Assembly (NCBI GenBank): GCA_001662655.1
Contig: KV460252.1
From: Pseudogymnoascus verrucosus
Lineage: Eukaryota
Strand: one strand, 5' to 3'
Length of the DNA stretch: 64,000 nt
Shown here: piece by piece, positions 1 to 57,754 of the stretch
Layout: each line of letters opens with the position of its first letter
Numbering within the stretch: position 1 is the stretch's first letter
Notes under the pieces: generated by a model
What the model was told of the DNA's origin: nothing
What the model saw: only the letters and a program-made list of their open reading frames with translations
The model's database searches: none
Made by a program: the position numbers and the translations under genes

Positions 1-1
1 G

Positions 2-274
2 GGCTCAACTCCACTGATGCTCGCCATTAAATTTTCTCGTGATTATGGCTGCAATCGAGTGTTCTGGGAAATATCACGAATGCTCCTCTTGACAGGGAAG
101 GTTGATATTGATCGTTATAATAGGCGCACTACACTTCATTCACTTGCTGAATATTATGGAACAGTCGAGCTGGTAAGATTAGTGGAATGCTTCTATCGAT
201 GTAGCGGAAGTCAAATGGACGAATTGAAGGACTTGGAGTGGGATGGCAAGGAAATGCCACAAACTCTGCAGTAG
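2..274 (+). CDS. 3' end of an ankyrin-repeat protein (truncated by the window start)
   Basis: Frame 2 reads GSTPLMLAIKF...EISRMLLLTGKVDID...TTLHSLAEYYGTVELVRL, which contains an ankyrin-type TPLxxA...LL motif. Stop codon at 272-274. Confidence 0.6.
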   Translation, partial: GSTPLMLAIKFSRDYGCNRVFWEISRMLLLTGKVDIDRYNRRTTLHSLAEYYGTVELVRLVECFYRCSGSQMDELKDLEWDGKEMPQTLQ

Positions 275-805
275 ACCACGGGAAACTCGAGGGATTCCAC
301 ACTTGTTATATCAATTCCGCTTGGTGGACCACAAACCCATCTTGGCCTGCCACCTAAGTCATTTCTGACGCTATCATGGTAAATACTAGGATCTGTGCAA
401 CACTCTGTGTACCATTTTAATCGTCACTAGCGAGAGATTTTACATCTGCGGATAGTTGAACAGTTTAAATGTGTCACAGTACCTAGCCAGCTCCAGCTGG
501 GTATAGTATGCGACGGCTGCCCCACCGCTAAAACAGTATGAGAATGAATCAAATATCTCAGCATTTCTCATACAAAAACTGGTGGCGTGTGCCAAAGCAC
601 AGACTTTAGTATTTCCCACCCGAACTGCCCATATTCTGTGATGCAGCCCTGAGGTCTAATAATTAAATATCTAATACTTGCATACAATCAGATCTAGACA
701 TGCAACAAAGACCGCCCGTGTCTTCGCCTATCGAGTTGAATATTGCTGAATCCTAATGGGGGGTATATTGTAGTGTTGGGACACGGATCCGTTCGGGGTG
801 TCGAT

Positions 806-2318
806 TCAAGCGAAATTTGTGATATTCGGTATAGACCCAGCCAGATTTATGGCTGTATCAGAGTCTGGGTGGACGAAGAATGCAATGGCAATAGTAACAT
901 AGCTGAGAACGAAATCATTATTAGGCTAGCCAAGGAAAGAAGAGGGTGGCGAGGTACTTACGTGCCGATCAAAAGCACACCTTCAAAGTAATTGGTCTGT
1001 CCGTCACGAACCAGGCAGTTCACTATGAGGACTGACATGGTGAGAGCAATGGTTTCGAAGGTGTCGAACTGCAATGTCATGTCTTTCCCAATGATCCAAC
1101 CTACTATCACCAAGAACGGGGTAACGAACAGTGATATCTGTAACGTACTCCCCACAATGACGGAAACTGCAAGGTTTATCTTACCAGTCCTGGACCATTT
1201 AACCGTGGCGACGTAGCATCCCGCATTCCCAACGATGGGCACGATGATGAGACCGATAAAGCTGCGACTGACACCTAACGCCTCGACGAAGCCGTCGACA
1301 CTGTCGATGAGATAATCGGAGCAGACCGCCACACCGACAGTCGCAAGAATAAGAACCGTGCTGCTAGACCAGGTGCTCAACTTGTCGCTTTGCTCGTCCT
1401 CTTCCTCTTCAGTGAAGAGATGACTGTGGGTATAAGACTGGAAGAATAAATACAGCAGGTAAAATATGAGGAGGATTATGGATGTGGTGCGGGATAAGTT
1501 CAAGATATAATCGTTTGGATTATGGTTGGAGTCATTAGACCCGGGATTGGCGATATAGAGAGCGGACGGAATGATGAGAGAGGAGCACGAAATGATCATC
1601 AACGACGTGAGAATGCCGGCAATGTCAATGTTGATGTCAACCGTTTGCTTTCCCACTCCGACACAAAAAAAAGATGTACCAAGAATCTAGAGACAGGTGT
1701 CAGCGCGGATTGGGAGTGACCAAAGCAGTGGAGGGAAGCCTTACAAGCAAGATGGATGATAGAATACTGCCGATCATACTCGACTGCACAATGCTTATTT
1801 CCCCCTCCTTGAGAGCACTTATGCCAACCTGAAGAGACAAAGTCAGCGACGAAGGAGTCATGGGTTTCTGGTGAAGGAGTCTGCGTAGGGGCAAGAAAGC
1901 ATACTATCATTTCCACGGCATTGCCAAACGTGGCATTGATCAATCCACCAATGACCGAGCCAAACTCGGCTGCCAGTTGCTCAGTCGAGAAGGTCAATAT
2001 GGAGGCGAGCGGGAACATGGCCAGGAAGTTGAGAGTAAACACGGCGGCGGGGCTCCAGCCGTGTTCAGCGGCATATATACCGAGAGGTACGCAGACGAGA
2101 AGGACATTTGAATAGCTGTACCGGATCGTAGCACTCAGCGCGTGCCATGCCTCACGAGAAACGCGCAAGGACACATGTTGTCGATTTCCCCCCGAAACTG
2201 GCTGCCACTGGCTGGTCTGGTCTTGATCTTGAGCGTGCCGCTGTCCATTGAGCAGAGGCATCGTGTCGGTCGGGGGCGACGGCGATTGCGCTTGGATGGG
2301 CGACGCGGGATTAGCCAT
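806..2318 (-). CDS. Ca2+/H+ exchanger, CAX/Vcx1 family (paralog A)
   Basis: Inferred exons 2318-1905, 1828-1745, 1686-962 and 902-806, with GT-AG introns in frame. Alpha-1 repeat GGLINATFGNAVE, GSILS, acidic loop TEEEEDE, alpha-2 region PIVGNAGC, GSTLQISLFVTP. Confidence 0.92.
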
Positions 2319-3315
2319 GGCACAAAATTGCAGTGATCAAGAGGTCTCAAAGCCCTTGGGAAGCAGTGCTGAGCAATTGCGATAGTTCACAACGCAGGAG
2401 GAGATCTGAGGTTGTTGTAAGGTTGATGTCAAAATGTCAAAAGCATAACTGCAAGGTAAAGCTAACGTCCTCAGCCTCGGGGGGGAGGGGGTCTTGCTGC
2501 CCCGCCGTTCTTCACCTAGCCTAGTGCCTTATGGAGGTACTGTGCCGGCAGGCACTCGTGCTGTGCTGTACTCCGTAGTCCTACTTTGTACTGCTCTACT
2601 ATCACCCCCTGTATGATTGTAACGACCTGGAAAAGTATTGCTAAAGCTTGGCAGGATCGCTCACTAGAACTGGACGTCATTCTGCCTAACTTGGGTGCGG
2701 TGGAGTAGTAAAAACAGTAGATCGTTACAATCATATAGGGAGGGAGGATAGGATTAGTAGTTGGTCCCGACGTGGCCTACTACAAAGGTCCCTGTCTTGA
2801 ATCCTAAGCAGTATTTAGGCTTGAAATAGCCCATAAATAAAATTCGGCCTAACAGAAGCAATCTATCCAATAGAATAGCGATGCAACGATCATCTCCACC
2901 TGTAAATGAAAACAATGACACTAACGGCTGGTACCGTTTAAAAAAAGTGGCACAAGCCGTTTCATACGGGGCTACGCGTACGTATACGGTAGAAGTCCCT
3001 ATACTACAGTCACTGCTAGAAAGAATAGCCAAGCGTAGGGTTATGAATGTCGGTCAATTATTGTGTAATATCTGAAGCTGACGGGAATCGGCACCTGTTG
3101 GCTGAATACTACATCGCTAGCGTGCTTGCGTTGTTACTCTACATGTACAGTTCAGTGTTCAGTACGTAATTACAGTACAGCTCGCGAAGTGAAGCGTTCT
3201 CAAGGACACAAATGCGAAGAGCCTCTATAGCCGCCACTACTACACATCCAACGTCAACATCGCATACAAACTTCCTATGACGAGGTAATACTGTCTGTGC
3301 AATAGCAGCTTTGCC

Positions 3316-4909
3316 ATGAACCCCGAGTCGTTGGCGACAACCCGACGCCGTAGCCACGCTCGTTCTTCAAGCCCAACAATGGACCCCGTTAATGGGGCTG
3401 AGGCTCCCATATCTCGCCCTGGCCCTCGCTCTTCTTCCAACTTGGAGCCGCAGGGTGGGTTGCTGCGCAGAATCAACTCCCTTCCGGTCGCTAGGATATC
3501 AAGGACCGCAACGGCGTCGCTATTTACGCGTACCGAGACCTGGGGCGATGCAGGTCCTTCGCTCAACCATAGTTATGGGCCGGCCAAGGGGCTTCTCGTC
3601 TTTGTCCCCATTGGTATCGCTGCTGGAGTCTGTGGCCTACCTGATGTGGCTATCCTCATCCTCAACTACCTGGCGTTGGCGTCCTTGGCTCCCTTCATCA
3701 CCTTCACCGTCCTGGGGCTCTCTAATGGCGTGGGAGTCTCGAGTGGCCTCCTAAGGGCTATCTTTGGAAATGCCACTGAACTAATTGTAAGTATGGCCTT
3801 GCCTCCTAGTCCACGCTCTACCTCGATGGCCATCTAACATGAAATTTCTCGACAAGATCAGCATTACTGCTATGTGCTATGGCCAGTTCCAGCTTGCCCA
3901 GGGGACATTGATAGGGAGTACCATATTATACTCCCTTTTTGTAAGGCCCATTCCTTCGTTCTGCCTTGCCCGCTCTAACTTTAGGAAACGCTAGGTCTTA
4001 GGTGGCAGTTTCTTGTGCGCCAGCTACGGCAAAGATCATCAAATGTTTAGCAAGACTCGAACGGGGGCCATGTCAGCTCTTGTCATGGTCGTGTCCATTT
4101 GCCTCACCATCCCGACCATCATGTCTATATCGAACAAGGAAAGCGTACCACAGGAGGGCCGTCAACGCAACATGCTAATACTATCTCACGGTACTTCCGT
4201 TGTCCTCTTCTTCCTCTCCATTTCGTACCTCGCATTCCGCTTCCAGACTCACCATAAACTGTTTAACCGCGACCATGGGCCCACGCGTTCATTGACCGTG
4301 CTTCTCATGCAGCCAGAGCACGTTACCACGAGCCCTCTCATCCTGGCTTTCGGCTTCCTAGGCGCCATGGTCTGCGCTGGGATCTGCACCAACTATGTGA
4401 TCCGCAACATTGACCTTACGGTTAAGATGTTGCACATAACTAAATCTTTCGCTGGCCTGGTTCTTCTGCCGCTGGCGGGTAACCTTGCGAAGTCCTTCAA
4501 CATCATTAGGAATGCGAGACAAGAGGGAAATATTTCGCCCAAAACGGCGAACAACTTGGACTGCGCTATACGATTAATCATGACAAATATCCTGGATACC
4601 CTGCTGTTTATCATGCCTCTCTTGGTTCTGTTAGGTTGGATCATTGACAAGCCTATGACGATGCAGTTTGGCCTTTTTGAGACCGTCGTCTTCCTCCAGT
4701 CCATAGTCATCATGACATACTTGGTACAACATGGCAAGACTACTTATTTCGAGGGTTTTATGCTCATTGGAACGTAAGCATATTTTAGATTTTTCTACCA
4801 GCTAAGACGCCCTTTTCATTAACATGTAACCCCTAGATATGTCTCTATCGCTGCCGCTTTCTATGTCCGCCCTGACGTAGCTGAAGGCGGCACCAACTCA
4901 TGGAAATGA
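3316..4909 (+). CDS. Divergent CAX/Vcx1-family exchanger (paralog B)
   Basis: Inferred exons 3316-3786, 3857-3940, 3995-4773 and 4837-4909. Motifs GLLRAIFGNATE, LPLAGNLAK and TYFEGFMLIGTY. Its three intron positions match paralogs A and C. The start could instead be ATG 3379. Confidence 0.88.
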
Positions 4910-4941
4910 TGGGTATAAATAAAAGTAAGGGAAGACAAAAG

Positions 4942-6405
4942 TCAATTATATGGCTCAATAAAAATAGCCAGCGCGATAACCGTGTACCTAAGATAATAAA
5001 GTTAGCAAATGGCATGCAGATTTTATCTTCAAAACCACATGAATGACTGCCTTACATTGACAAGAGCATGATGCCATGGAAATATGTGTACTTTCCATCC
5101 TGCAGCACCTGGTTCACGCTCAAGACAGCCAGGAGGAGGATGTAGGTCTGTGACGTCTCGAAGTAAAGGTCCATGGCGCGGCCCATGTACCAGCCGATGA
5201 CCACGAGAAAGGGGAGGACAAAGAGGGCAATCTGTAGAATGCTCCCTATAATGACCCCAATGGCGAAGTTGATCTTCCGCTGCTTTGAGGCCGCAACCAC
5301 CTGCGACAGCTCAGGGGCATTGCTAGCCAAGGGGATGAGAAATATAGCGATAAACGTCTTAGTGATATGCAAGGATTTGGCAGTCTCGTCGAGGCTCGTA
5401 ATAAAATATTGCGTGCACTTTGTAATCAATGCCGCCGAGATGATTAAGATGGCGACGGCTGAGTAGACCTCAGACACCGACGGCGTATCGTCTTCCTCCT
5501 GGCTTTTAATAGCTTCTCTGGTAGCCTCGTCAATCTGCTGTTGCTGGGGGTCCTCAATGCCATCTCCATGTGCCTCATGATGGACGTCGTCCTTTTCGTC
5601 GAGAAAAACAGACGGGTGAGTCCAGAGCTGGAAGTACAAGAAGATGACATAGATGAGCAGTAGCACAACGGCTGTTGCCCGCGAGAAGGACAGGATCTTG
5701 TCATTAATATCCTCGCCCCCCTTGGGGAGGGTCGAGTACAGTATTGTAGGCAGAATGAGCGCCACGGCGGCGACGAGCATCAGCGACGACAATGCGTCGA
5801 CTATAGCGGCGTTGACAGAGAGGATGCTGGTGCCGTGGGCTGCGGCAATGAAACAGCAACCTTGAACCTGCAAGAATAGAATTAGAGGGTGAAACTTGGC
5901 TGCGGCCAGATTGGAAGCGACTGACGAGGAGAATGTCTGAGAGGATGCTACCCAACATGGTCGACTGTGCAAGCCTTATTTCGTTCTGGTTAATGGCCAG
6001 GATGCCTACCTGCAATCCGAATTAGCAACTCTTAGGTGGCGTTTAGTTTAGGTAATAGCTAACAATTAACTCGACGGTATTGCCGAAGGTGGCATTGACT
6101 AGGCCGCCGAGCAGCGAGCCCCATCGATTCGCCAGAGTGTCTGAAGCATCTGAGATGAGAGCAGACAACGGTATGATGGCGAGGAAGTTGAACACCGATA
6201 CCAGTACCGCGTTCCAACCAAGGAATCCGGCAATAAAGCCCAGTGGCGCGAAGCCCAGAAGCACTTTGATTACGATGGGTTGCTCAGCGACCTGCCGCCC
6301 GGCATCGACAAGCAGCCGCCGCCATCCCAGCTCAACATCCTCTCGATGAGCACGACCGCCGCCTAGCTCGGCGGAGTCGTTGAGGAAGGGATCGGATTCC
6401 GACAT
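4942..6405 (-). CDS. Ca2+/H+ exchanger, CAX/Vcx1 family (paralog C)
   Basis: Inferred exons 6405-6064, 6009-5926, 5867-5056 and 4987-4942. Motifs GGLVNATFGNTVE, GSILSDILLV, PLASNAPE and GSILQIALFVLP, plus a long acidic His-containing loop. Confidence 0.92.
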
Positions 6406-7442
6406 GGTTCGATCCGTGTCGTAATTGATTAGAGGGAAGAAGAAATCAGTCTCTAAAAAAAAGTTCGTGTCGGTGGTGACACTATCTGAGTTGCTAGCAA
6501 GCTGTATCTGGCTGGAGTTGCAAGATCGATCACAAGGCTGAGACGGGTTGAGCCGCAACAACACCTCTAAACTTTAGTCAAATGCCATTTAGAAGCTAGG
6601 GAGCTGGAGCTGTCAAACGCGCCGGGGGACTGCTTATTGGAGAGTTCTGTCCCCTGGTTTGTGCCGCCAAAGCTACCTAAGAATAGTGCAGTGAATATTA
6701 ATGACATTTACCACTCCACCCGCCAAGTTAAGGACGCGTAATCCTAGGAGCTAAGCCAGTCAGAATAGTGGGGAGTACAGTATCCTAATGTAAATCTTGA
6801 ACGACGGGTCATTTCCACTGGACGGTACGGTACATGACACTTGCCGAGGACGAGGGGTTTTTCGTACAGCGCACAGTACAACGAAGAATCCTTCGTCCTT
6901 AGCTTTAGGGGAAAGGTGTTGCTTGTTCACAATTGGCTGAACATGAGGACGACGGGGGGATTTTCATTCCTACGGGTACTTACTTCAGAGACTGACTTCT
7001 TACCGGGTAGCTCCTCCTTACCTCACGGAAATATCCCTACGCTAATGCACGTGCTATGAACGGGGTAGGTAACCCCTACCTTAGTGAATACGGAGTAAGA
7101 TTATGGACGGATTTGTTTTGTATGGTCCATGGGAATGGATTCGTGAAGTTGCGAGACTTGGCTGAGGGAAAAAAAGGCGAAAAGGCTGAAATATAACTAC
7201 GAACAATTGGCCGACGAACAATACCTACCGATGAGCTGCTTCTCCGTATTCTAATTCTTAGCCTTCTGTCGTCCTTAGCATATTATCATAGCTGTTTGGC
7301 CTGGGCTATCTTCAACAACGACGACGTAGCACCAGAACAGCAGACTCTCCTTATTGCAGTCACCTGCACCCTGCACCCTGCACCCGACATCGAGACCTTG
7401 CTATGCTTTCGCCATCCACACAGTAGCAGCGTCAAGTGTTCG

Positions 7443-10400
7443 ATGGGGATCTCACCTGGCCATGACGTCGAGTCTAGGCTGGTATCCTTTGACACTCCTC
7501 GGAGACCAAAACCACCCACGATAACAGTCACTCCAGGTGTGAGTTTGCCCACATGCGCCTCTTGTCTCACTCCACCCTGTCTCACTGCATCTTGTCTCAC
7601 CCCGTCCTGTCTCACTCCATCCTGTCTCCCTCACCAGACCATCTTACAGGCCTCTCAGGATGACCGCGATAGCTCGTCGACGACGCGTCTAGCAACGGCC
7701 TACGATGCGCCCCAACGCGTTGTCGCCGCCGATAATGCCTCGCAGCCACTTTTGGGACCTGGCACAGGGCGCGGCCGAAGTTCTTCGTCGTCCTCTTTTG
7801 CGTCGTCGCTCCGGCCTGACGCACCACCCAGGCGCATCTTTCCTAACATTCCCATCGATGCGTCAGCGTCAGGCAGTCTAGAGCCTTACCCTCGCTCGCC
7901 TTCGTTACACGATGGGTCCTCGACCACCACCATGGCTCCAGTATTCTCTGTTGGAAGATCGCGTGCATCTTCGGGGATAACTGTGATCAGACACGGAGAC
8001 AACGACAACATTCTAGCGCCTGGTCCTGGTAAAAGAGTTTCTTCTCACACCGAGGATAACCCGTTTGCGTTCGGCCCTAATGTGATCGCCGAGATGATTG
8101 CTTCAAAAAGCCTCACGGAATTTCAAGCGTTAGGTGGACTCGCAAAGCTAGCACAAGGCCTGCGGACAGATCTTTTGACTGGCTTGAGCCTAGATGAGGC
8201 ATGGCTACACGGCACTGTCCGTAGCGGGTCAGCGTCGCTAGCTACGGCGGCGAGACATCAAGAGAGTTACCAGGTTTTGCAGGCTAGGAGGGCTGTGTAT
8301 GGGACGAATCGTCTCCCAGACCAGAAGACAAAGGGCATCTTCGAGCTCATGATTTTGGCACTTAGCGACAAGGTCTTAGTTCTTCTCTCCGTTGTCGCCA
8401 TCATCTCTCTGTCCCTAGGTCTGTATCAGGCTTTCGGGCAGCCTCATAAGCCGGGCCAGCCACGTGTCGAATGGGTGGAAGGCGTTACAATCATGGTTGC
8501 TGTTATCATCGTCGTCGTCACGGGGGCCTTGAACGACTATCAGAAGGAACGACAATTTGCTCAACTTAACAAGAGGGTGAGTTATTCTCTAATCTCATGA
8601 CCACTCTCACTCCGTGACTATATTACTGGTATAACTTAGAGTACTAACATTTGGATGTAGAAAGAAGATCGCATGGTCAAAGCAATCCGATCGGGGAGGT
8701 CGGTAGAGATTTCCATATATGATGTCCTCGCAGGTGATGTGCTGCACCTAGAGCCTGGAGATCTTGTCCCAGCAGACGGTATTCTAATTTCCGGTTATAC
8801 TGTTCGATGTGATGAATCTTCCATGACTGGAGAATCCGAACAGATACAAAAAGTCGCTGGGGACGAGGCCTTGGCTAGATTACATACGTCCGGAGATGTA
8901 GACAGCTTAGATCCCTTCATCATCGCTGGGAGCAAGGTTTTGGAAGGAATTGGCACCTACATTGTCACAGGCGTCGGTATCAACAGCACACACGGGCGAC
9001 TGATGATGAGTCTGACAGAGCGTACCGACGAAACACCATTACAAAAGAAGCTGAGCATAGTGGCGGACAAAATTGCCATAAGCGGAGTGGCCGCGGCCGT
9101 TACCTTGTTCGTTGTTCTCACAGCCAAGTTCCTGAGTCAACTTTCAGGAAGCCACGACTCTCCGTTTGAACAGGTCCAGGCGTTCCTGCGAATATTCATT
9201 GTCTCGATCGCCATTGTTGTTGTAGCTGTCCCAGAAGGACTACCTCTGGCTGTCACACTAGCACTAGCAATCGCTGTGACACGAATGCTGAAAGATAACA
9301 ACCTTGTGAGGATCTTGTCGGCTTGTGAAACGATGGGAAATGCGACTACTGTGTGCTGCGACAAAACGGGGACCCTCACCACGAACAGGATGACAGTTTG
9401 TGCGGGAACTGTAGGCGTTGCGGGTCGGTTCTTGGATGAGGGGAGTCAACCAGGCGGTAGCGAATCACGACGTGGTTCTGTTCGGCCTAACTCATACAAC
9501 ACCATGGAAGGAACAGCAGGGAGTTCCGCTTGGAAAGATGGGGCTGTTCCGACGGGGACGTTTTGTTCTCTGCTTGCCTCAGATGTCCGAGATATCATGG
9601 TGAAATCCATCGCCATAAACTCCACTGCCTTTGAAGGCGAGGAAGACGGCAAGCCGGCTTATATCGGTTCGAAGACCGAGGCTGCACTCTTGACATTCGC
9701 GAGAGACTGGCTGGGAATGCAACCGCTCGATGTGGAACGCGAAAACGCCGAGGTGGTCGAAATTTACCCATTCAACTCGACCAGAAAGTGCATGGCTGTT
9801 GTGACACAGCTGCCCAATGGCTTGTATCGAATATATCTAAAAGGAGCGCCTGAAATTGTCTTGGAGAAGAGCAGTCGAGTCATTTCTAAGACAACTTCCC
9901 AGCTGAGCGAGAACGTCAATTTGACAGAAGATAGACTTGAGGTGCTAACGGGAGCCATCAATGAATATGCTTCTCAGTCGTTACGGACTCTTGGCTTCGC
10001 ATACAGGGACTTACCATCATGGCCTCCCCTAGGGGATGGGGTGGGCGAGGTGCCTTTCGACGACATATTTGCCGACATGACGTTCGTAGGCGTCCTGGGA
10101 CTCCAGGATCCACTCAGACCTGGAGTTGAGGCCGCTGTTGAACTGTGCCAGCATGCAGGAGTATTTGTAAGAATGGTGACCGGCGACAGCGTCAGAACTG
10201 CTCAGGCGGTAGCAAGAAAATGTGGCATTCTCACGGAATCTGGTGTTATTATGGAAGGCCCAGATTTCAGAAAATTGTCCGTTCCCGAGATGGATAGCAT
10301 ACTGCCGCATCTGCAGGTGCTCGCAAGATCTAGTCCAGAAGACAAAAGGATGCTTGTGAAGAGGCTGAAGGAGCTAGGAGAGACCGTAGCTGTCACAGGC

Positions 10401-11673
10401 GATGGCAGTAATGACGGCCCAGCTTTGAGAGCGGCAGATGTTGGGTTTTCGATGGGTATCTCTGGCACTGAAGTTGCCAAGGACGCATCGTCGATCATTT
10501 TGATGGATGACAACTTCTCGTCGATTGTTAAGGCAATTGAATGGGGTAGGACGGTCAACGATGTGATCAAGAAGTTCCTCCACGTTAGTTTACATATGAA
10601 AGAGTGGAGAAAATCTTGACTAACATCAATCACAGTTTCAACTTACGGTTAATGTCACCGCAGTCACGCTCACCTTCGTATCTGCGGTTGCAAGTAATAA
10701 GGAAGAATCCATACTTACCCCAGTTCAGCTGCTTTGGGTGAATCTCATTATGGACACCTTTGCCGCTCTCGCTCTCGCCACAGAGCCTGCGAACCCAACT
10801 GTTCTCGAGAGGGAGCCAGAGAGGAAAACAGCACCACTGATCTCGCCTACTGGCTGGAAAATGATCATAGGGCAAGCTATATACCAACTCATTGCCGTCA
10901 TGCTTTTATATTTTAAAGGAAACGAGATGCTCGGATATACGCAGCCGGAGGATATGGAAAGACTCCAGACACTGATCTTCAACGCTTTTGTCTGGATGCA
11001 AGTTTTTAATCTCACCAAGTAAGCTATTAAATGGGGATTTCCGAGACTCTTCCAAAGCTAACTATGCGCTAGCAACCGTCGACTCGACAACAAGCTCAAT
11101 GTATTCAGCGGCATCCTCCAGAACCCGTTCTTTATTGCAGTCAATATGGTCATCATTACAGGTCAAGTTCTCATCATATACTTTGGGGGCAGCGTGCTCG
11201 CTACGACACGGCTCTCTGCAAACGAGTGGGCCATATCTCTTCTCATAGGATTCGCGTCTCTTCCCGTTGGCATGTTACTTCGTCTCACTCCCGACGCATC
11301 ACTCCAACGAATCTTCACCTTCCGGGTGGGCACGCAGAGGTCAAGGGAGACTCGGGCATCGGAGGCTTCTGAGGGCGACCAGTGGCACCGCGCCATCGAG
11401 AATGTGCGTTTCAAGCTTGGTTCTAGAAGACAACCCCGCAGCTCGCGACTGGAACGTCTGCGACGTGGGATTTTACCCTTCGTCAAGGCAAAATTATTTG
11501 GAGTGGCCCAGGATGATGACGGAGAGGTAGACGAAATAAGCCCTTTACTTCCTTTTAATAGTAGGCAGGATCTCTCACGGACAGGTTCAATTTGTGCACC
11601 TGCTGCAGCAGTCATGGCAGGCATTGTCGCAGGGGGAGTGGCTGGTTGGCCACGTATACCAGATGAGACATGA
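7443..11673 (+). CDS. PMC1: PMC1/PMCA-type (P2B) Ca2+-transporting P-type ATPase
   Basis: Inferred exons 7443-8576, 8661-10583, 10636-11018 and 11073-11673. Motifs TGES, VPEGLPLAVTLALA, DKTGTLT, KGAPE, TGD, GDGSND and QLLWVNLIMDTFAALALATE. The start codon is uncertain, and this may be a paralog rather than the main ortholog. Confidence 0.93.
7561..7630 (+). repeat. 15-bp coding tandem repeat, (CLTxx) x5
   Basis: TGTCTC(AC/CC) units start at 7563, 7578, 7593, 7608 and 7623, encoding CLTPP CLTAS CLTPS CLTPS CLPH. Confidence 0.85.
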
Positions 11674-12205
11674 AATTTAGATCTGTACTCATAAAATTTT
11701 CTTTTGTTCTAGAATAGAATCATCTGCTTTCTCATATTCGGCGTATTTGCTCGAACGTTTCTACCATGTCCTTATATTTTTATACAAGTTTCTGATCGTG
11801 ATGATGTAGCCAAAGCTATATTTGCGGCTAAGATGCATGTGTGATTAGCTCAGCGGAGATCCGTGGCTAAGCATTTGCGATCGGCTTGGCGATCGGCTTG
11901 GCGCCCTGTCACATTTCCAGGGGTAGAAGGTTTCGAGATTGAGCACGCGTATACTCAAGGTTTCAGTGCGTGAAGGCCAACCGAAGGGGGAAGGCGACGA
12001 AGCGACCGATCGTTTCCTCTCGAATTCGGTGGCGAGACATTGTGAATTGAGGCAGGCTCTGGGTCTATATGAGAGCAACGGCGTGCATTTGGTGGACTCG
12101 ATGGACAATGATAGCTAATGGTACGAGTTAGTTGGGGAATCCGAGAGTGACGAAGATTCTCCGCGAGTTTTGGTCAGCCTTCGGTTTAGGGCGACAAAAA
12201 AAAGT

Positions 12206-12557
12206 CAGCCTCAGAGAAAAAAAAGTGGACGCATTATCAACTATCCGGGCCCCCATATGATTGTAAAAATCTATTGTTTTTACTGCCTCACTGCAACCAA
12301 GTTAGGCAGAATAGCGTTCGATTTTAGTGGACGATCATGCTAAGCTCTTGCAAAACTTTTGCGGGTCGTTATAATCACTACAGGGGGGAATAGCATATGC
12401 TCGACTAATACAACAAACACCTTATCTAGTCACAACCCGCCGCTGGCCGAGCCCGCGTGAGGCTGTGTCGCTCGTGGCATGTCACTATGAGGGATTTTTC
12501 GGAATTTTATTTTGAACCATACTAGAATAATGTGCCATTTTATATATAACCAGCCTC
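12206..12557. promoter_or_regulatory. Three Crz1/CDRE-like GAGGCTG sites upstream of FET4
   Basis: CAGCCTC at 12206-12212, GAGGCTG at 12459-12465 and CAGCCTC at 12551-12557. The motif is short and function is unproven. Confidence 0.35.
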
Positions 12558-13076
12558 CTCCAGCCATGATAGAGTTCATTTATTCCTCACTCACAGTCTT
12601 CCATCTACACACCGAGATTCGATTACAGAAATCGAATTCATTAAACACTGTGGGTTTTGCCAGGCTTAGTTGGATGCTACTTTTGGTGTATTTGATATGT
12701 AACTGACAATATGCAGAAAACGAGATTGAACAGGAGCAGAGACTCCTGCGAAACGCTGGCGACTATCATCTCTTCCCATGGGCTAACAGGCTTCATCAAG
12801 CCTGTTGGCGAGCTGCTAGAACCCACCCGACCACCATAGGATGAAGGTTAGCCTACTACCACCAGAAGATAGTCGAAAAGGGTCCCTCTACTAACTCATC
12901 TAAACCATAGGATAGATCTAATCTTCCAGTTTACTACTTCCTAACAACCATTTTCAGAATCGTTTACTAGACCATCGAGCTGGGCAACTCAACGAGCACC
13001 AAGGTCGGCTCTGCGACCATTACTCTCTCCTTCATAACCAAATCGCGGACCGGCACGTTTCTCTAACGCGCAAGCA

Positions 13077-14612
13077 ATGGAGCGGTTATTGAAAGCCCTT
13101 CGCTCTCCAGGCGGTAGACGCGCAGTTGAGTGCACGGCACCGACACAAATGACAGTGCATGTCGAGGATGAAGGAGACAAGGCGGGCGAGATTTCCGTTG
13201 AAAACGACAATACCTATAATCTCACAACGAAGGCTGGACGCTTGGATCGGTGGCTCGATAAGGTCGTGGAATTCTCGGGCTCGGAGCCCATGTTTCTCAC
13301 CATCATCATCGCCCTCCTCGCCTGGGCATTCTTGGGGATTCGATTTGGACAGTTGACACAGTGGAAAGTCGCTATCTCTGACGCCCAGGCCATCCTTAAT
13401 ATGGTATTTGACGCCTTCCTCATGCGCCAGCAGCTGAATTCGTACGACTCGCTCATCGAAGTCTCAGCTTGCCTCAGATCTCGCACTACTAGCAACAAGA
13501 GAATGCTGCGGAGCCTGATCGAGAGCGGGAAATATGAGAAGGTCAATCCGATGCAATTTCACGAGCTGGAGCAGACAGAATTCGCATCAGAGCTCCCTGT
13601 GGAGAGCTTGCTAGGCCGAATATCCACTGCCTTCTCCACCTTCCTAGGCCACATCGCTACAGTGGTCGCTTTCTGGGTGTGTATCTTCATCTGGATTGGA
13701 TTTGGCCAGTACTGTGGCTGGTCCGACACATGGCAGTTATACATCAACTCGGCCACATCAGCATTGATGGTGTTAATGTTGGCATTCTTGGCAAACATTC
13801 GTGAGCGGCACAGCAAATACACTACGAAATGTCTCGAATCCATCTACGAGGTTGATGCTGCTCTTGAGCTTAGACTCCGAACCGCCTCCGGCGACACGAT
13901 TGAAAACGCGCCCGTCCACATCCCAGTTCCCGAGAGGAGCAGAATCCAACGCGCAATCGACTACTACGCGGATCTGGTTGGCACTCTTCTCGGGATCGTA
14001 ATCCTGGTCTTTGCACTGATCGTTTGGGTCGCGATTGGCCCGGCACTGTCCTTCAATTCAAACTGGTGGCTCCTCATCGGCACGTATGCCGGGCTGATAG
14101 GCATGAACGATGGGTTCGTGCTGCGCAATGTGCACAACGTGCTACATGGCTACGAAGATGCCCAGTTTGTCCAGGTGACATACGACGACATGGACATGCT
14201 TGCTGTGATTGGCGTCACGCAGCTCAATGAAGAGCGCGTCGCGGCCGACTCACTCACCTACCGAATCTCGGTCAAGATGGGTGATTTCTGCTCGCACGAA
14301 CTCACGGTCGTGTTGGGCGCCATCGTGATTCTAGGCCTGGTCATTGGCGCCAGTGCAATGGAATGGAGTGTTACTGGACAGCTGCTCTGTAATGTCCCGC
14401 CTAGTATCATCGAATCATTCTTCACGATGATCCTGATCACTGGTCACAATATCGGAGATGCTAAGAGGCGTGTCGACCTTCACAACATCTACCTGCGAAG
14501 GCTGAAAAGTATCACATATGTCAATACGCTGGCCAAGCCTGAGAAGCAGGAGAGGTTGTTACGCCCGCACGATCACACGGAACTTATGGAGGTCAAGATT
14601 GATTCGCTTTAG
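13077..14612 (+). CDS. FET4: Low-affinity Fe(II)/Zn transporter, Fet4 family
   Basis: Intronless 511-aa ORF with repeated Fet4 permease units: WKVAISDAQAI, WQLYINSATSALM, WWLLIGTYAGLIG, GQLLCNVPPSIIESFF. Confidence 0.9.
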   Translation: MERLLKALRSPGGRRAVECTAPTQMTVHVEDEGDKAGEISVENDNTYNLTTKAGRLDRWLDKVVEFSGSEPMFLTIIIALLAWAFLGIRFGQLTQWKVAISDAQAILNMVFDAFLMRQQLNSYDSLIEVSACLRSRTTSNKRMLRSLIESGKYEKVNPMQFHELEQTEFASELPVESLLGRISTAFSTFLGHIATVVAFWVCIFIWIGFGQYCGWSDTWQLYINSATSALMVLMLAFLANIRERHSKYTTKCLESIYEVDAALELRLRTASGDTIENAPVHIPVPERSRIQRAIDYYADLVGTLLGIVILVFALIVWVAIGPALSFNSNWWLLIGTYAGLIGMNDGFVLRNVHNVLHGYEDAQFVQVTYDDMDMLAVIGVTQLNEERVAADSLTYRISVKMGDFCSHELTVVLGAIVILGLVIGASAMEWSVTGQLLCNVPPSIIESFFTMILITGHNIGDAKRRVDLHNIYLRRLKSITYVNTLAKPEKQERLLRPHDHTELMEVKIDSL

Positions 14613-15009
14613 GTGAGGAAGAGCCACGAGAAGAGTAGAAAAGCAAAATTGAGTTGGATAGGGAGAGGAGCTGAAAATATGACGCCTTTGTTCAACACAA
14701 TGGTCGATTTAGCTTCAGTAGCCTCTAAAAGTTTTGTTGAATTACCTGATTTTTCGCGTTGATTTAAGTATTAGAAATCATGATTTTAAGTAGTTATTTT
14801 CCTTTTACAATACTATCATACTTAACCAGTCCCCTACTTCTAATGTTGCTGTTGTTTCGTACTTTAGTGTTGTTAATCAACCCCTCGAAAAAAAAATTGG
14901 ACACATCCCCCACACAGCCACGCAAATAACATTCATATCCATCAACTGCCTTCAGAAAAATTATAATTACTGCATTACCCAAACACCTATACCCGCTATT
15001 AAACTGCAC

Positions 15010-15147
15010 CCACCCCGCTACCCAACCTAGGTACCATCGCCATCCATATGCTTTTTGAGACTCCTTATACCCAGCCATCCACCCCGCTACCCAACCCAGG
15101 TACCATCGCCATCCATATGCTTTTTGAGACTCCTTATACCCAACCAT
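15010..15147. repeat. 69-bp tandem duplication (2 copies)
   Basis: CACCCCGCTACCCAACC(T/C)AGGTACCATCGCCATCCATATGCTTTTTGAGACTCCTTATACCC starts at both 15011 and 15080. Confidence 0.9.
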
Positions 15148-15243
15148 CTACCAACCTATTATACGCCCAACCGTGAGGTCGCCCTATACCCCCCAACCCA
15201 AGAATTAGCCAGCAATTAAACCTATAACCTCGCCGCTTCAAAA

Positions 15244-18200
15244 CTACCCAACACCACCACCCCCAGCCACACTCTCCATACCCCCCATCCCACCACCCAT
15301 CCCTATCCCCCCTCCCCCTCCCAAGCCCCCACCAATCCCCATCCCCATCCCCATCCCCATCCCCATCCCCATCCCCCCCTCCCCTCCCCCACTTCCAATC
15401 CCCAACCCCCCCAACCCCACCCCTCTCCCCCCCTTCCCAACCTTCTTAGCCCACCTCAGTCCACACCCATTACACAAATCCCTCTTCCCACTCGGCCCCC
15501 TCCTCCACTCCGGCGTCGTCTTCGCCTGACAATTCGCACAATCCCTCTCCCCCCCACCCCCCTGCCCCTTCCTCCTCTTCCTCTTCTTACGGAGAGACAA
15601 CAAGGCCGAGAGTTCAGTGGTGAGGGAGGCATTATGGCGCGTCAGGGACGTGAGTTCCGACTGCCACGACGTACACCTCGCAGGCAACAATTCCGTAATC
15701 AGCGGCGACTCCGGACGCCCAGACGCGTCCACCGCCGCAGCAGAACCATCCACTTGATTAGGCGTCCTCATCCCCGGCTTCACCAACCTCGTCAACGCAA
15801 TCAAAAACCCACACTTCCCCTTATTACCCTCCCCCGCATCTCCCGCAAACAAACTAGTAACAGCCATAACCCCCACCCCCCTCTTATTCCTAACCTCATG
15901 CCTCCACCCCCTCCCCCTCCCCACCAGGCACTCCTCAAACCCCACCCTCTGGTCCCCAGGCAAGAGGGCTTGGAAACTCGTCCCTACCAGCGAAGAGGGT
16001 GAGCGATCGAGAAGCGTGCGCACGGAGGTGGAGATGTAGAGGATTAACCCGGAGGTGGAGAGTTTACTCCAGATGTCGGAGTCGGTTAGGGTGCCTGAGG
16101 CGGAGATGGTGGTGTGTGAGAGGGTGTAGACGGGGCGTTCGCGGCTTGTTAGGAGGAGCGTTTTCGAGGAACTGCTGGGGTTGGGAGGGGAGGGGCGGAG
16201 GCGGCCGTGGGTTTCAAACCAGATGTAACCGCGGGTTGCGTGGCGGATGCGGAAGATGGTTGTTATCCCCCCCCCGCTGGTTGTGGCATCCTTAAGATCC
16301 CGCATCACGGACACGATATCGCTAGGATGGCAAACAGACGATAGAGCCGTCCCTACCAGCTCCTCAGGCGCATACCCGAGGATCCGCTGGCTGGAGGGGG
16401 AGAGGTAGAGGAAGTGCCCTGTGGGGGAGAGGATTTGTATCACATCGGGGCTAATCTCCAACAGAAGCGCGTCCCGGAGACCAGTGCCGTCGTAGTTCAG
16501 CCCCGCTTGGTAGGAGGTTAATATCGTCGAAACTTCCCCCGGGCTAAGCGTTACGCTGGTGTCGAGATGCGATGGGGTGGGAAGAGGAGCGCGGGGCGTG
16601 TAGCGAGGGAGGTGGTGCTGGGAATAATTGACCGAATAGGTCCCCGTTGTGCTTTTTGAGATGATGGCGGAGGGGTTGTCAACGAGGTCGATTTGGAATC
16701 CGACGTAGTATTTCACCTCCTCCGTGTCCCAGGTTATCGGCACCATAGTGAGGAGGTTCGTGAACGGCTGCCCCCCTTTCCGATAATTAATCAAACTGCA
16801 CTGTACCTCCTTTCTCTTTAACACCCCCCGTTTTAAGGCGTACACAGCAGCATCATCGACGTATTTCCTCTTCTCCCCCTTTTTGGACTTCCCGTCGGGA
16901 GACTGAAGGAATCGACAGTTCTTCATCCACACCTCGTTCTTGTTGTAGCCGGTCAGCCGCGAGAAGATTTCCGAGGCGTAGATTACGGGGTTATCGGGCA
17001 TGGTGGCGTCGCAGACCACGAAGGCGCAGGACATGTCGACGGAGCCGAGGTCGGTCTCGGGGTTGGTTCGGGAGGTGACTTTCATTAGTATGCCTTCTAT
17101 ATTGAAGCCGCTGCTGGAATTATGGTTCGTAAATGTGGTGTTTGTAGAGGAGCTCACTGGTCCGTTGAACGCCTCTGCGGTCGTCGTTAGAAGTAGAGGG
17201 GAGTATGTCTCCATATTAGGCATTTCGGGTGGTATTGATGAAATCGTAGGAATCGTAGGAATAGAAGTCGTTGTGTATAATGCTGGGCTTTGGGTCATGC
17301 CGGTGCTAAATTCGACATGGCTGTTGCGTCTTGATATATGGCTATTACGCCGGGACGTATTGTGGGATTCGACAAGAGTTATTTCGCTGCGTGAGCTGTG
17401 GCCCAATACTACACTCGATGTTCCACTGTTGACCTGTGATGCTGCGCTGAGTGCGAAGTCCGACGAAATAGTGTCCATAGACGGGCCTGAGAACGGCTGT
17501 GTGAAGCTATTCGGGTTGAAGATGATCGCTGGCTGGGTGTCTTGCATTTCGGGAAATGACATCATATCGCCCATCATATTCGTTGGCATTATTTGAGGAG
17601 CGATGGCCTGATAGGCAGTAGGAGACTCGATGGCGACGGAGGTTTGGGCCATAAGTGAGAAATTTGTCGGGTTTCCGGCCATATCCATATTCGTTCCCAT
17701 GTCCCCGTATACTCTCGACACATCTAGCTCCTGTACTGAAGGCCTCCTGCTGTGGACACTGATATCTACGTATCCATTTGACACATCTAGTTCTTGAACT
17801 GAAGGCCTCCTGCTGTGGACACTGATATCTCCGTATCCTCCTGGCACTTCGAGTTCATGTACTGAAGGTCTCCTGCTCTGGACACCAATGTCTCCATACC
17901 CTCTTGGCACTTCGAGTTCATGTACTGAAGGTCTCCTGCTCTGGACACCAATGTCTCCATACCCTCTTGGCACCTCCAGCCCTTGCATCGAAGGCCTCCT
18001 GCTTTGTGCAAGAAGATTTGCGTTTGGCGCAGTAGTAGTAAACTGGAAGTTATTGAGAGCCGCCTGACCCGAGCCGAACTCCATCATAGATCCTCTCCGG
18101 TTCTGAATAGGCGTATATATATCGTCCATATCACCTCCAAACTGCTGCATAGGCAAGCTCTGTCGCCGCAGAAGCTCCTTGCTATTCTGCCGCACAATAT

Positions 18201-18438
18201 CATCAAGCGTATCCCCTCCCCCCATCATATCCGGCATATTCGTCATATCCATAGCCTCGTTTTCGGATACCGGGCCCAGCATGGCCATCCCCATGGCCTG
18301 GCTTCCAATATCATTTCGTGGGTATCGCCGTTGAGCAGGCGGCGGCTGCTGTTGCTGTTGCTGTTGCTGCTGATGTTGCTGCTGATGTTGCTGCGACCGA
18401 TCCTCGCGAGTATATTGCGGCCCGAAGAATTCTTGCAT
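15244..18438 (-). CDS. wc-1: White collar-1-like blue-light receptor and GATA transcription factor (LOV-PAS-PAS-ZnF)
   Basis: PolyQ N-terminus, LOV motif NCRFLQ and NYRKGGQPF, two further PAS domains, a basic NLS (RKKRKRRK) and a C-X2-C-X18-C-X2-C finger (CANC..TTPEWRRGPSG..CNGC). Confidence 0.9.
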   Translation of the reverse strand: MQEFFGPQYTREDRSQQHQQQHQQQQQQQQQPPPAQRRYPRNDIGSQAMGMAMLGPVSENEAMDMTNMPDMMGGGDTLDDIVRQNSKELLRRQSLPMQQFGGDMDDIYTPIQNRRGSMMEFGSGQAALNNFQFTTTAPNANLLAQSRRPSMQGLEVPRGYGDIGVQSRRPSVHELEVPRGYGDIGVQSRRPSVHELEVPGGYGDISVHSRRPSVQELDVSNGYVDISVHSRRPSVQELDVSRVYGDMGTNMDMAGNPTNFSLMAQTSVAIESPTAYQAIAPQIMPTNMMGDMMSFPEMQDTQPAIIFNPNSFTQPFSGPSMDTISSDFALSAASQVNSGTSSVVLGHSSRSEITLVESHNTSRRNSHISRRNSHVEFSTGMTQSPALYTTTSIPTIPTISSIPPEMPNMETYSPLLLTTTAEAFNGPVSSSTNTTFTNHNSSSGFNIEGILMKVTSRTNPETDLGSVDMSCAFVVCDATMPDNPVIYASEIFSRLTGYNKNEVWMKNCRFLQSPDGKSKKGEKRKYVDDAAVYALKRGVLKRKEVQCSLINYRKGGQPFTNLLTMVPITWDTEEVKYYVGFQIDLVDNPSAIISKSTTGTYSVNYSQHHLPRYTPRAPLPTPSHLDTSVTLSPGEVSTILTSYQAGLNYDGTGLRDALLLEISPDVIQILSPTGHFLYLSPSSQRILGYAPEELVGTALSSVCHPSDIVSVMRDLKDATTSGGGITTIFRIRHATRGYIWFETHGRLRPSPPNPSSSSKTLLLTSRERPVYTLSHTTISASGTLTDSDIWSKLSTSGLILYISTSVRTLLDRSPSSLVGTSFQALLPGDQRVGFEECLVGRGRGWRHEVRNKRGVGVMAVTSLFAGDAGEGNKGKCGFLIALTRLVKPGMRTPNQVDGSAAAVDASGRPESPLITELLPARCTSWQSELTSLTRHNASLTTELSALLSLRKKRKRRKGQGGGGERDCANCQAKTTPEWRRGPSGKRDLCNGCGLRWAKKVGKGGRGVGLGGLGIGSGGGEGGMGMGMGMGMGMGIGGGLGGGGGIGMGGGMGGMESVAGGGGVG
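17700..18003 (-). repeat. 63-bp coding tandem repeat (about 5 copies) inside wc-1
   Basis: SRRPSVHELEVPRGYGDIGVQ-like 21-aa units with nearly identical DNA. Confidence 0.9.
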
Positions 18439-20059
18439 GGCGCTGCCAGTTGCCTCATAAGCCGGTCGTCGTCCTCGATACCGTGCGTATAGGTATCATG
18501 GATGCTTGCTCCAGCACGCGGTGTCCACTATCCGGGAAGAAGTCGAGCAGCAGCCTATACCGACGGTGATGATCCCCCACACCGCACGAGAGGCGCTGGA
18601 GCCCGGCTATATACCGCGCAAGCTGCAATGGGGGCAGGCAATATGACTCCCTCGGGGAAAGCGAGAGTTCTTCCCGAATCGAGGGCGTCGAGGAGGCCGT
18701 AACTAGAATGCAAGGCTGGAATTCGGGCAGCGCGTCGGGGAGCGGCGGAGAAGAAGACACAAACATAGAGTCTCTGCGTGGTCCCAGCGCGTCAGATACA
18801 GGGCAATGCATAGACGTGAGGAGCGTGTGTGTGTGTGTGCGTGTAGTCTGTCTATAGCGGGATTTTTCAAAAGAGCGGCGTGTGGGAGGATGATTAGAGT
18901 TGGTTCCGCGTGGAAGGTCTGCATTTATTCCATCATCATCATACTGCCGTTATCATACTCCACGAGAGGGCGCATATGCAAGGCAGCGAGTGTCTTGTTT
19001 CAAGAGGGATTCTTTGCGTTCTTTTCCTTGAGGGGGGGTTTTGTGGATTTTGGTCACATATGATAGAACAACAAAAGAGATGGGGCTCTGGGGAGGGGGG
19101 ATGGGGGTAGAACAGTAGAACGGCAGATCTCTCTGTTGGAGAGTTCCTCTAGTGCCCACATCGCCCATCCGGATCTAAACCGTAGATGCCCCGGCATATG
19201 GACTAGGACTCTCGGTACTCATCTGACATGTATCAGTACATCGGTGAATGAAAGGGCGGGGAAGATTGGGTAGGAGATGGAGGAGAGGGGAGGAGATTTC
19301 CTGGGGGGGTGGGAAGACAAGAAAGGGAGACGAGAGGGGAAATGAGAGACAGCAAGGAGTGTTCTAGCCTACCACAGGGGGTGTGTGGCACTGGTATTCC
19401 CTGTAATCCTCCAGTAGATTCCTAGTAGATTCCCGGTAGATTTGCACTGGATTCCCACTGGATTCCCTGCTGGATCTCCCGCTGGTTTTTCCAAAGAGTT
19501 CTCGGCCCAGGAGTCTGTTGCTTGGAAGTACCAGTACCAGACGTTGTGCTTGGGCTGCATGTACATTCTTTGTATACCCCTTGCACTTGATGTCTTATAT
19601 CAGATATCGCGCTTGGCCTTGGAGTTGCAGCCAGTAGAAGAAGCCGGAGAGTATGGTCTAGTGTTACTATATGGCTATCCCATAATACGGGTGTACCATA
19701 TAGTAAGCTGTATAAGGAGTAGTGGACTCGTACAGCATAAAGGGCTGGATGAGTAAATTAGTTAAAAGGGGACTGTATAACGAGCACATGCGAAAGATAC
19801 TGAAATTACTGGAGTAACCTGTGGTCTGGGATATCATATAACGAGCTGTCGAATTTGTTATAAGGGGTACTCTCACTAGGAGTACTCTCAGTTTCGTGTA
19901 TAGGGGGCTGTTGTGTTGCTATGTTATGAGTTTGTTGTATGTTGTAGTTTACGACGTGTAGGGTAACTCAGTAACTAGGTTGCAATGTTGTGTCTTACTG
20001 TATGTATTGTTTTGCATGTCTATAGCGTGTATAGTGTGTTATTCCGTATACTCTACTAA

Positions 20060-54797: not shown

Positions 54798-55035
54798 TGT
54801 AAAGGATCTACAATAAACAGGGCAGTATGAAGTCACGTTCTTAGTTATACGCGTATAGTATAGATCCTATACACTACGAAGACTAAACGCTGTCCCTCCT
54901 CTAGAGGTCTACGTTCCTACTATATACTCTACGCTAGGGCTTTAGAAGGAAGTTCCTTGTTACAGCCCTTAGGGAAACTATAGACCGTGTAGGGTTCCGG
55001 TATTAGTACAGGGGTTGTAGAAACCTGCCGTAACA
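54798..55035. mobile_element. Possible RIPed solo LTR
   Basis: TGT...ACA ends enclosing about 240 bp of TpA-rich sequence. No matching TSD was found. Confidence 0.3.
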
Positions 55036-57725: not shown

Positions 57726-57754
57726 AAAAGACTTTAACCCCCAGTATTCATCTT

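Follow-up and report, generated by a model that had tools for sequence, protein, structure and literature searches.

A 64-kb window of contig KV460252.1 of Pseudogymnoascus verrucosus (the whole stretch of DNA that was analysed, 64,000 nt) carries near its left end three genes for proteins of the CAX exchanger family, here called CAX-A, CAX-B and CAX-C, a gene for a PMC1-like calcium pump and a gene for a FET4-like permease. The CAX genes and the pump probably represent a conserved four-gene cluster that occurs across several classes of Pezizomycotina, with a FET4 paralogue beside it in the present genome. Sequence comparison suggests that the four genes form a single unit for calcium handling that is inherited as a whole and may at times have moved from one species to another. 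An initial annotation made from the DNA letters had described five adjacent cation-transporter genes at 806-14612, and their coordinates and orientations proved exact when open reading frames (ORFs), Pfam matches and splice models were compared.

Linkage in other fungi

Judged by locus tags, accession order, merged gene models and metagenome DNA, the four families are linked in genera of the Leotiomycetes, Sordariomycetes and Eurotiomycetes. Pump and CAX genes, which are not homologous, lie together in taxa as distant as Pseudogymnoascus, Metarhizium, Conoideocrella, Tolypocladium and Aspergillus, and in the metagenome contig L004. B/C or C/A linkage is found in Chaetomium, Gaeumannomyces, Penicillium and the metagenome contigs L001-L003. 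Such recurrence in other genera shows that the arrangement did not arise by chance alone, and a module under selection would be expected to keep its core, the three CAX paralogues and the pump, together in three classes as observed.

Within Pseudogymnoascus, FET4, PMC1 and CAX-B have neighbouring locus tags in strains VKM F-4519 (V501_10309, V501_10310 and V501_10312), 24MN13 (VE04_06744, VE04_06745 and VE04_06747) and 05NY08 (VF21_05931, VF21_05932 and VF21_05934). FET4 and PMC1 of strain 03VT05 are VE02_04274 and VE02_04275, and CAX-B was not seen there. Among the Sordariomycetes, B, C and pump have consecutive accessions in Metarhizium guizhouense (KID82860-62), M. robertsii ARSEF 23 (EFY95252-54) and M. 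anisopliae (KAF5139002-04), and C and pump are consecutive in four further Metarhizium records. Another M. robertsii record has the pump at EXU96193, C at EXU96194 and A at EXU96196, a spacing that, on these numbers, fits the window order pump-C-B-A. The pump and B of Conoideocrella are two accessions apart (KAK2612614 and KAK2612616), and C and B of Chaetomium olivicolor are consecutive (KAL2127382 and KAL2127383).

Neighbouring genes of the cluster have also been merged into single gene models in several records. Such models join a second ATPase, B and the PMC1 orthologue in Tolypocladium ophioglossoides and T. paradoxum, C and A in Gaeumannomyces tritici and Penicillium macrosclerotiorum, and A and the pump in Aspergillus pseudonomiae and A. 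nomiae. A C-type gene lies two accessions from the merged A and pump model of A. pseudonomiae.

When metagenomes were scanned with the B-type alignment, five loci were found, L001-L005. B(+) is convergent on C(-) in L001, L002 and L003, and the aligned ends of B and C are about 40-55 nt apart in L001 and L003, compared with 32 nt between the stop codons in the window. L004 holds a pump, a B-like gene, C, a second pump and A within 14 kb, and L005 duplicates part of L004. The second pump belongs to another clade of P2B ATPases, 47-48% identical to the window pump, which accompanies the cluster in Tolypocladium (P0121, P0122) and in L004 (L004:12267-15486). The second-pump sequences of Tolypocladium and L004 group together with a support of 100 in the FastTree analysis, and the window has no such gene.

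Gene models and transcription

The splice models were assembled by hand from six-frame translations according to the GT..AG rule (Table 1). Those of the pump, CAX-B and FET4 are letter-identical to the recorded proteins P0285 (VE01_08331), P0292 (VE01_08329) and P0295, respectively. The first two bear the name Pseudogymnoascus verrucosus, so that the window comes from this species or from a strain that cannot be told from it. CAX-A and CAX-B are divergent, CAX-B and CAX-C convergent, and CAX-C and the pump again divergent, followed by FET4 in the same direction as the pump. The stop codons of CAX-B and CAX-C are so close that the 3' untranslated regions (UTRs) of both genes must overlap.

RNA evidence comes from the contigs of three runs, all from one study of a related strain, which were compared with positions 1-19000 of the window. 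Contigs of this kind show transcription; expression level and condition are not readable from their depth. Eight of the 12 predicted introns are exact joints in the run contigs. These include all three introns of CAX-A, two of the three in CAX-B (introns 1 and 3, with the unusual AAG acceptor), one of three in CAX-C (intron 3) and two of three in the pump (introns 2 and 3, while one loose contig end fits intron 1). A loose end with poly(A) lies at 11733, just past the pump stop, and FET4 is covered by pieces of contigs, so that RNA-derived contigs exist for all five genes in the same runs. The spliced 3' ends of both CAX-B and CAX-C are held by a single contig (X2, record 7), which is not equivalent to one transcript. 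Given the exact intron joints, the poly(A) end and the open frames, the genes are real, and all five are intact and transcribed. A DNA contig of the related strain is colinear with the window over 2685-15051.

Table 1. Positions of the transporter genes and of other features in the window
Feature	Position	Strand	Exons, length or remark	Product
CAX-A	806-2318	-	2318-1905, 1828-1745, 1686-962, 902-806	439 aa
CAX-A/CAX-B divergent intergenic region	2319-3315		997 nt; contains MITE-like element	
MITE-like element, copy 1	about 2602-2745		about 144 nt; 27-nt terminal inverted repeats; CAX-A/CAX-B intergenic	
CAX-B	3316-4909	+	3316-3786, 3857-3940 (AAG acceptor), 3995-4773, 4837-4909	468 aa
CAX-B/CAX-C stop-to-stop gap	4910-4941		32 nt; convergent genes	
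CAX-C	4942-6405	-	6405-6064, 6009-5926, 5867-5056, 4987-4942	427 aa
CAX-C/pump divergent intergenic region	6406-7442		1037 nt	
PMC1-like P2B pump	7443-11673	+	7443-8576, 8661-10583, 10636-11018, 11073-11673	1346 aa
Tandem repeat in pump N-terminal extension	7557-7631		15-nt unit, four copies	
MITE-like element, copy 2	12251-12393		inverted, 80% identity; PMC1-FET4 intergenic	
Stretch replaced in run contigs	12638-12716		upstream of FET4	
FET4-like permease	13077-14612	+	single exon	511 aa
Interval skipped by the related strain's contig	14999-15244		244 nt; between FET4 and WC-1-like gene	
Tandem pair	15007-15144		69-nt unit, 96% identical; between FET4 and WC-1-like gene	
WC-1-like gene	15244-18438	-	large single ORF	
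C-rich low-complexity stretch of WC-1-like gene	15298-15921			
Internal repeat of WC-1-like gene	17696-18023		63-nt period	
NB-ARC gene	47231-50504		just left of AT-rich stretch	
AT-rich stretch	50001-58000		GC 0.37-0.47, against 0.50-0.61 around	

The CAX paralogues

All three CAX genes encode proteins with the CAX family fold. PF01699 (Na_Ca_ex) was matched by the ORF pieces of CAX-A (E = 1.2e-23), CAX-B (1.5e-11) and CAX-C (1.3e-24), on both halves of CAX-A and CAX-C and on the second half only of CAX-B. Taken together, the Pfam matches, the alignment with Vcx1 and the alpha-1 motifs identify the two repeat regions typical of the family. Yeast Vcx1 (4k1c) is the best solved relative of exon 3 of each gene (A 1.1e-52, C 2.5e-41, B 1e-30). 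The alpha-1 motif GNxxE is retained at the end of exon 1 in all three, as GNAVEM in A, GNATEL in B and GNTVEL in C.

The alpha-2 motif is a different matter. GNAAEH of Vcx1, the Glu of which is reportedly a Ca2+ ligand in the Vcx1 structure, aligns with SNAPEL in C, GNLAKS in B and GNAGCY in A. An acidic residue is thus present at this position in CAX-C only, with Lys in CAX-B and Cys in CAX-A, and the canonical GNAAEH is found in none of the three. The description of the genes as three CAX exchangers therefore applies to the fold. CAX-A and CAX-B are CAX-fold paralogues that, lacking the alpha-2 Glu, are not classifiable as standard Ca2+/H+ exchangers, and by sequence no CAX gene of the window is a canonical Vcx1 orthologue. 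Representatives with GNAAEH, among the first 60 of the 150 listed, are 31-48% identical to CAX-A and CAX-C.

The substitutions recur in relatives and, on the sequences compared, are clade signatures, not decay. The Lys of B-types is invariant in two alignments (33/33 in A1 and 15/15 in A2). Arg or Gln takes its place in the more distant B-like genes of L002 and L004. CAX-B is further distinguished by a 9-aa insertion and by MTNILD in place of GSxLQ, and the B-types of Tolypocladium, at 53-55% identity, retain the 9-residue insertion and MTN[IV]LD. C-types read SNA[PST]E in four of four metagenome C-type loci and in most C-type representatives that gave a motif, motifs having been read from the first 60 of the 150 CAX representatives listed. 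E94, S305, N306 and E309 of the C-types are invariant (13/13, alignment A3). A-types read GNAGE[FY], except that CAX-A of the window and P0343 of Metarhizium robertsii, 63% identical to each other, both read GNAGC; among the A-types examined, only these two have the change from Glu to Cys. CAX-C is 59% identical to the Metarhizium C-type P0319. The tree support is 96-98 for the A clade, 99-100 for C, 96 for B and 100 for the Lys-bearing B core.

The three paralogues have three intron positions in common and are 30-38% identical in pairs, so that the duplications must be very old and A, B and C are ancient paralogues. An origin as recent tandem duplicates was rejected on the same figure. A further CAX lineage with a remodelled site is, by its sequence, represented by P0342, an 892-aa protein made of two CAX units in tandem, each with GNSAAY, and hence no Glu, as its alpha-2 motif.

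The pump

The pump matches PF00690, PF00122, PF13246, PF00702 and PF00689 and contains the motifs TGES, PEGLP, DKTGTLT, KGAPE, TGDS, GDGSNDGP and NLIMD. The hinge motif TGDS usually has the form TGDN. The catalytic motifs of P-type ATPases (TGES, DKTGTLT and GDGxNDxP) and the transmembrane Ca2+-site motifs (PEGL and NLIMD) were found at residues 434, 569, 612, 958 and 1055. The best solved relatives are ACA8 (8qmp, 5.2e-125), PMCA2 (9gsd, 2e-124) and PMCA1 (6a69, 1.2e-122), with weaker matches to SERCA (about 1e-71) and SPCA (about 1e-67). On this sequence evidence, the protein is a P2B (PMCA-type) Ca2+-ATPase. Its N-terminus of about 270 aa is of low complexity, without a Pfam match, and contains a Cys-Leu-Thr-Pro-rich repeated peptide encoded by a short tandem repeat (Table 1).

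Phylogeny and possible transfer

The pump gives the clearest phylogenetic signal. A FastTree analysis of 122 sequences drew on the window pump, its 120 best matches and parts of both L004 and the merged models; the multi-copy or plant proteins P0125, P0131 and P0147 were excluded. The window pump falls in a clade that otherwise contains only Sordariomycetes, and the other Leotiomycete pumps lie elsewhere, at about 58% identity in the match list. An IQ-TREE analysis of 31 pump rows groups Pseudogymnoascus with Hypocreales and Sporothrix (Shimodaira-Hasegawa-like approximate likelihood ratio test, 98), with the Sordariales outside at 96 and Rasamsonia further out. Approximately unbiased (AU) tests were made gene by gene, with a quick tree search throughout, against the constraint that the Sordariomycetes are monophyletic to the exclusion of Pseudogymnoascus. 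The pump rejects this constraint (log-likelihood difference 49.8, p-AU 4.1e-5), and CAX-C rejects it weakly (14.6, 0.024).

The window CAX-A groups with Metarhizium at 99 in one tree and 89 in another, and CAX-C does so at 95 and 89, while the B-type tree leaves an unresolved trichotomy. Among the matches listed, the closest named relatives outside the genus are Hypocreales for all four core genes. No other named Leotiomycete is present among the 42 B-type matches or in the 18-row clade of cluster-type pumps. Transfer of the cluster between lineages is plausible on these trees, and we think it rather likely that the Pseudogymnoascus cluster was gained from a Hypocreales-like Sordariomycete lineage. 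Identity to the nearest named relatives of the cluster genes reaches only 53-66%, or 72% for pump exon 2, which means that any transfer is old or that the donor is unsampled. In the A and C trees the Eurotiomycete genes fall into clades of their own, which suggests that the cluster is ancient; it would be older than the split between Eurotiomycetes and Sordariomycetes.

The FET4-like neighbour

The permease has the PF04120 domain (1.3e-34, in three stretches) and full-length similarity to FET4 proteins: it is 56-95% identical over at least 87% of the length to 120 listed relatives, many of which are named low-affinity Fe(2+) transport protein. The identity is 95% to V501_10309, 72% to a P. destructans protein, 69% to V499_00026 and 56% to Tolypocladium capitatum. 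Among the matches listed, the closest named relatives are mostly Leotiomycetes at 70-72%, with one Sordariomycete (Coniochaeta) at 70%. The window copy lies in a clade with a support of 95 in which all named members are Leotiomycetes. A second paralogue of the genus (P. destructans and V499_00026) forms a separate clade at 100, which makes the window FET4 an extra copy, and the single Hypocreales sequence sampled is a long branch elsewhere.

No FET4 relative was found in the metagenome loci L001-L005, and in T. capitatum FET4 and the pump are on different contigs (46,339 and 59,425 nt). By these comparisons, FET4 is linked to the cluster only within Pseudogymnoascus and has a history that differs from that of the four core genes. 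Because FET4 is missing beside the cluster outside the genus, the conserved unit consists of A, B, C and the pump or pumps. Of the five-gene module first proposed, the part comprising A, B, C and the pump holds across genera, but FET4, with its different phylogenetic affinity, does not belong to it.

Upstream of FET4, the contigs of runs X1 and X2 cease to match the window at 12620 and 12763, and a stretch between these is replaced (Table 1). Either the strains differ here or FET4 may have an untranslated exon.

Possible function

The cluster would probably serve as an accessory module for the clearance of cytosolic Ca2+, perhaps also Mn2+, that works beside the canonical genes. A high-affinity, ATP-driven pump would be paired with a high-capacity, proton-driven exchanger, the C-type protein, in which both Glu residues of the site are intact. 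The two would rid the cytosol of Ca2+, either by storing it or by exporting it from the cell. CAX-B, with Lys, and CAX-A, with Cys, have a remodelled cation site and would most likely be partners with altered specificity or with a regulatory role rather than standard exchangers. The Lys of the B-type, next to the alpha-1 Glu, would presumably neutralise or occupy the cation site.

A bolder proposal, which we regard as doubtful, is that A, B and C assemble into a single hetero-oligomeric exchanger that works with the co-inherited pump as one horizontally transferable Ca2+ unit. C would then supply the complete cation site, and B (Lys) and A (Glu or Cys) would be protomers that gate the complex or set its specificity. 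The tight tail-to-tail arrangement of B and C and the overlap of their 3' UTRs would then ensure that the partners are inherited together and in balance.

Opposing evidence and alternative explanations

Several observations weigh against the idea of a co-inherited, co-regulated and transferred calcium unit. Adjacency in the named genomes was read from locus tags, consecutive accessions and merged gene models, not from coordinates, and L004, Tolypocladium and Aspergillus show that lineages differ in the order and orientation of the genes. The Leotiomycete sampling rests on match lists that were word-limited or held the best 120 matches, and the AU groups, which were set by taxonomy, were tested after the first tree was known. 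CAX-A (log-likelihood difference 7.9, p-AU 0.087) and CAX-B (1.5, 0.20) do not reject vertical descent. The conflict between gene trees and species tree is clear for the pump and weak for C; A and B do not decide the matter.

We infer the function and the co-regulation of the cluster from sequence, and the promoters do not lend support to the latter. Motifs resembling the calcineurin-dependent response element (CDRE), in the Crz1-like consensus forms GNGGCKCA, GDGGCK, GGCTC, GAGGCTG, GTGGCTC, CACAGCC and GGGGCT, show no consistent enrichment in the three promoter regions. One GNGGCKCA match lies in the CAX-C/pump intergenic region, with no other CDRE-like enrichment there, and a 7-mer screen of the three promoter regions gave nothing convincing. 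Nor did Pfam identify a recombinase, a transposase or a captain (DUF3435) of the transposons known as Starships in 30 scanned ORFs of the window, 29 of which lie to the right of the cluster and 16 of which have no match at all; the window begins 805 nt to the left of CAX-A. The matched ORFs are of housekeeping, regulatory or NLR-like (nucleotide-binding, leucine-rich repeat receptor) kinds. The module had initially been called possibly mobile. This finds some support in the pump tree, which nests Pseudogymnoascus within the Sordariomycetes, but no transposase or Starship captain was seen among the ORFs scanned.

The main alternative to transfer is vertical descent of the cluster from the ancestor of Leotiomycetes and Sordariomycetes with massive loss and no transfer, which is conceivable, though we lean against it. 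The separate Eurotiomycete clades in the A and C trees, the three-way split of the B tree and the AU results for B and A all agree with such a history. It is harder to reconcile with the AU results for the pump and, weakly, for C, with the absence of other named Leotiomycetes among the B-type matches and the cluster-type pumps, and with the Glu-to-Cys change that the window shares with M. robertsii. Linkage could also be a passive relic, in which old tandem CAX duplicates never separated, the pump came to adjoin them by accident and nothing selects for the arrangement. Tandem duplication predicts paralogues with common intron positions, as observed, and the variable order and the failure to find a common promoter motif would be in keeping with it. 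The relic is nevertheless unlikely, since a pump of an unrelated family is linked to CAX genes in Pseudogymnoascus, Metarhizium, Conoideocrella, Tolypocladium, Aspergillus and L004, the paralogues are so divergent that the duplications are very old, and the tight tail-to-tail B/C arrangement recurs in L001 and L003.

A metal-tolerance island that includes FET4 in the same co-regulated, mobile unit is very improbable. It would explain the consecutive FET4 and PMC1 tags in four Pseudogymnoascus strains and the presence of all five genes in the same runs, and the existence of another FET4 paralogue in the genus means that this copy is an extra one. However, none of the five metagenome loci has a FET4 match, the T. 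capitatum genes are apart, and FET4 is closest to Leotiomycetes (70-72%, against 56% for the sole sampled Hypocreales), unlike the other four genes. There is hardly any case for the view that CAX-A and CAX-B are decaying and non-functional and that only CAX-C and the pump matter. Both lack the alpha-2 Glu, and CAX-B has an odd acceptor, but both frames are open, their introns, that acceptor included, are spliced in RNA-derived contigs, the B-type signatures (Lys, insertion and MTN[IV]LD) are kept in relatives as distant as Tolypocladium, and the Cys of CAX-A recurs in M. robertsii.

Repeats and the rest of the window

The window contains only two copies of an element resembling a miniature inverted-repeat transposable element (MITE), 9.5 kb apart. 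DNA contigs of the related strain break at the first copy, where the word depth is 38 compared with 17, and the break and the doubled depth identify the element as a dispersed repeat. A composite transposon formed by the pair was considered and rejected, as CAX-A falls outside the stretch of B, C and PMC1 that the copies flank and yet has the same Metarhizium affinity. We take the bracketing to be a coincidence and do not regard the element as a vehicle of transfer.

Directly to the right of FET4 is a large gene whose product combines three domains of the PAS type with a zinc finger of the GATA type and by its sequence looks like the White Collar-1 (WC-1) blue-light regulator. The gene has an internal repeat and a C-rich low-complexity stretch, and the interval between it and FET4 contains a tandem pair in a part that the contig of the related strain skips (Table 1). 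Besides this WC-1-like PAS/GATA protein, the rest of the window encodes zinc-finger factors, CBS/PB1 proteins, mitochondrial ribosomal protein S2, an importin, a short-chain dehydrogenase, an FHA protein, an NB-ARC protein, a Tsr3-like protein and a VHS protein. The NLR-like NB-ARC gene adjoins an AT-rich stretch that is almost without long ORFs and is possibly degraded repeat DNA.

Relation to known systems

To our knowledge, the Ca2+ pumps and exchangers of fungi have been treated as scattered, independently regulated genes, and we know of fungal gene clusters mainly from secondary metabolism and a few nutrient pathways. What would be new here is a conserved, possibly transferred gene cluster with ion transporters as its cargo. 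The open literature searched gave no account of clustered CAX and pump genes, nor of the A/B/C signatures. If ion transporters are indeed kept clustered in three classes, and may even have crossed from one class to another, they would be a new kind of cargo on which selection for clustering acts. The cluster offers a concrete handle on why filamentous fungi have so many Vcx1-like genes, and the invariant Lys of B-types at the site Glu of the family is a natural experiment on the mechanism of CAX transport. As the cluster is present in Metarhizium and in the Aspergillus flavus group, a role in Ca2+ tolerance is testable in tractable species.

Filamentous ascomycetes are described as having multiple paralogues of both CAX and PMC, the roles of which differ in part, including VCX1A-E and PmcA-C in Beauveria bassiana, seven VCX1 and three PMC1 in Trichoderma reesei and four Vcx1 in Magnaporthe oryzae (PMC6997533, PMC11677643, PMC5431182). 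These families resemble the present one in their several paralogues. Term searches of these papers (PMC6997533, PMC5431182, PMC11677643) found no statement on genomic linkage, and the A/B/C signatures and the lost Glu are not mentioned in the passages concerned. A precedent for cooperation between CAX paralogues is provided by CAX1 and CAX3 of Arabidopsis, which form a heteromer with altered properties (PMC5853972). Both are standard exchangers and are not reported in that account as gene neighbours (PMC5853972), whereas the candidate partners of the present cluster have a remodelled site and, in the case of B and C, are encoded tail to tail.

Starships are described in published abstracts as vectors of horizontal transfer. 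The cluster resembles transferred fungal clusters and Starships in its patchy distribution, its linkage across classes and the conflict between gene tree and species tree, and differs from Starships in that neither a captain nor another transposition gene was found in the ORFs scanned, in a window that starts close to CAX-A. The permease next to the cluster has PF04120 in common with yeast Fet4 but is an extra paralogue that lies outside the conserved cluster.

A close parallel is found in yeast, where Vcx1 and Pmc1 are the two systems of vacuolar Ca2+ sequestration and are encoded by genes that are not known to be linked. The same two protein families are present here, and the pairing of a pump with an exchanger for the clearance of cytosolic Ca2+ would follow the same logic. 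The difference is that the families are clustered as what appears to be one heritable unit, with SNAPEL, GNLAKS and GNAGCY in place of GNAAEH.

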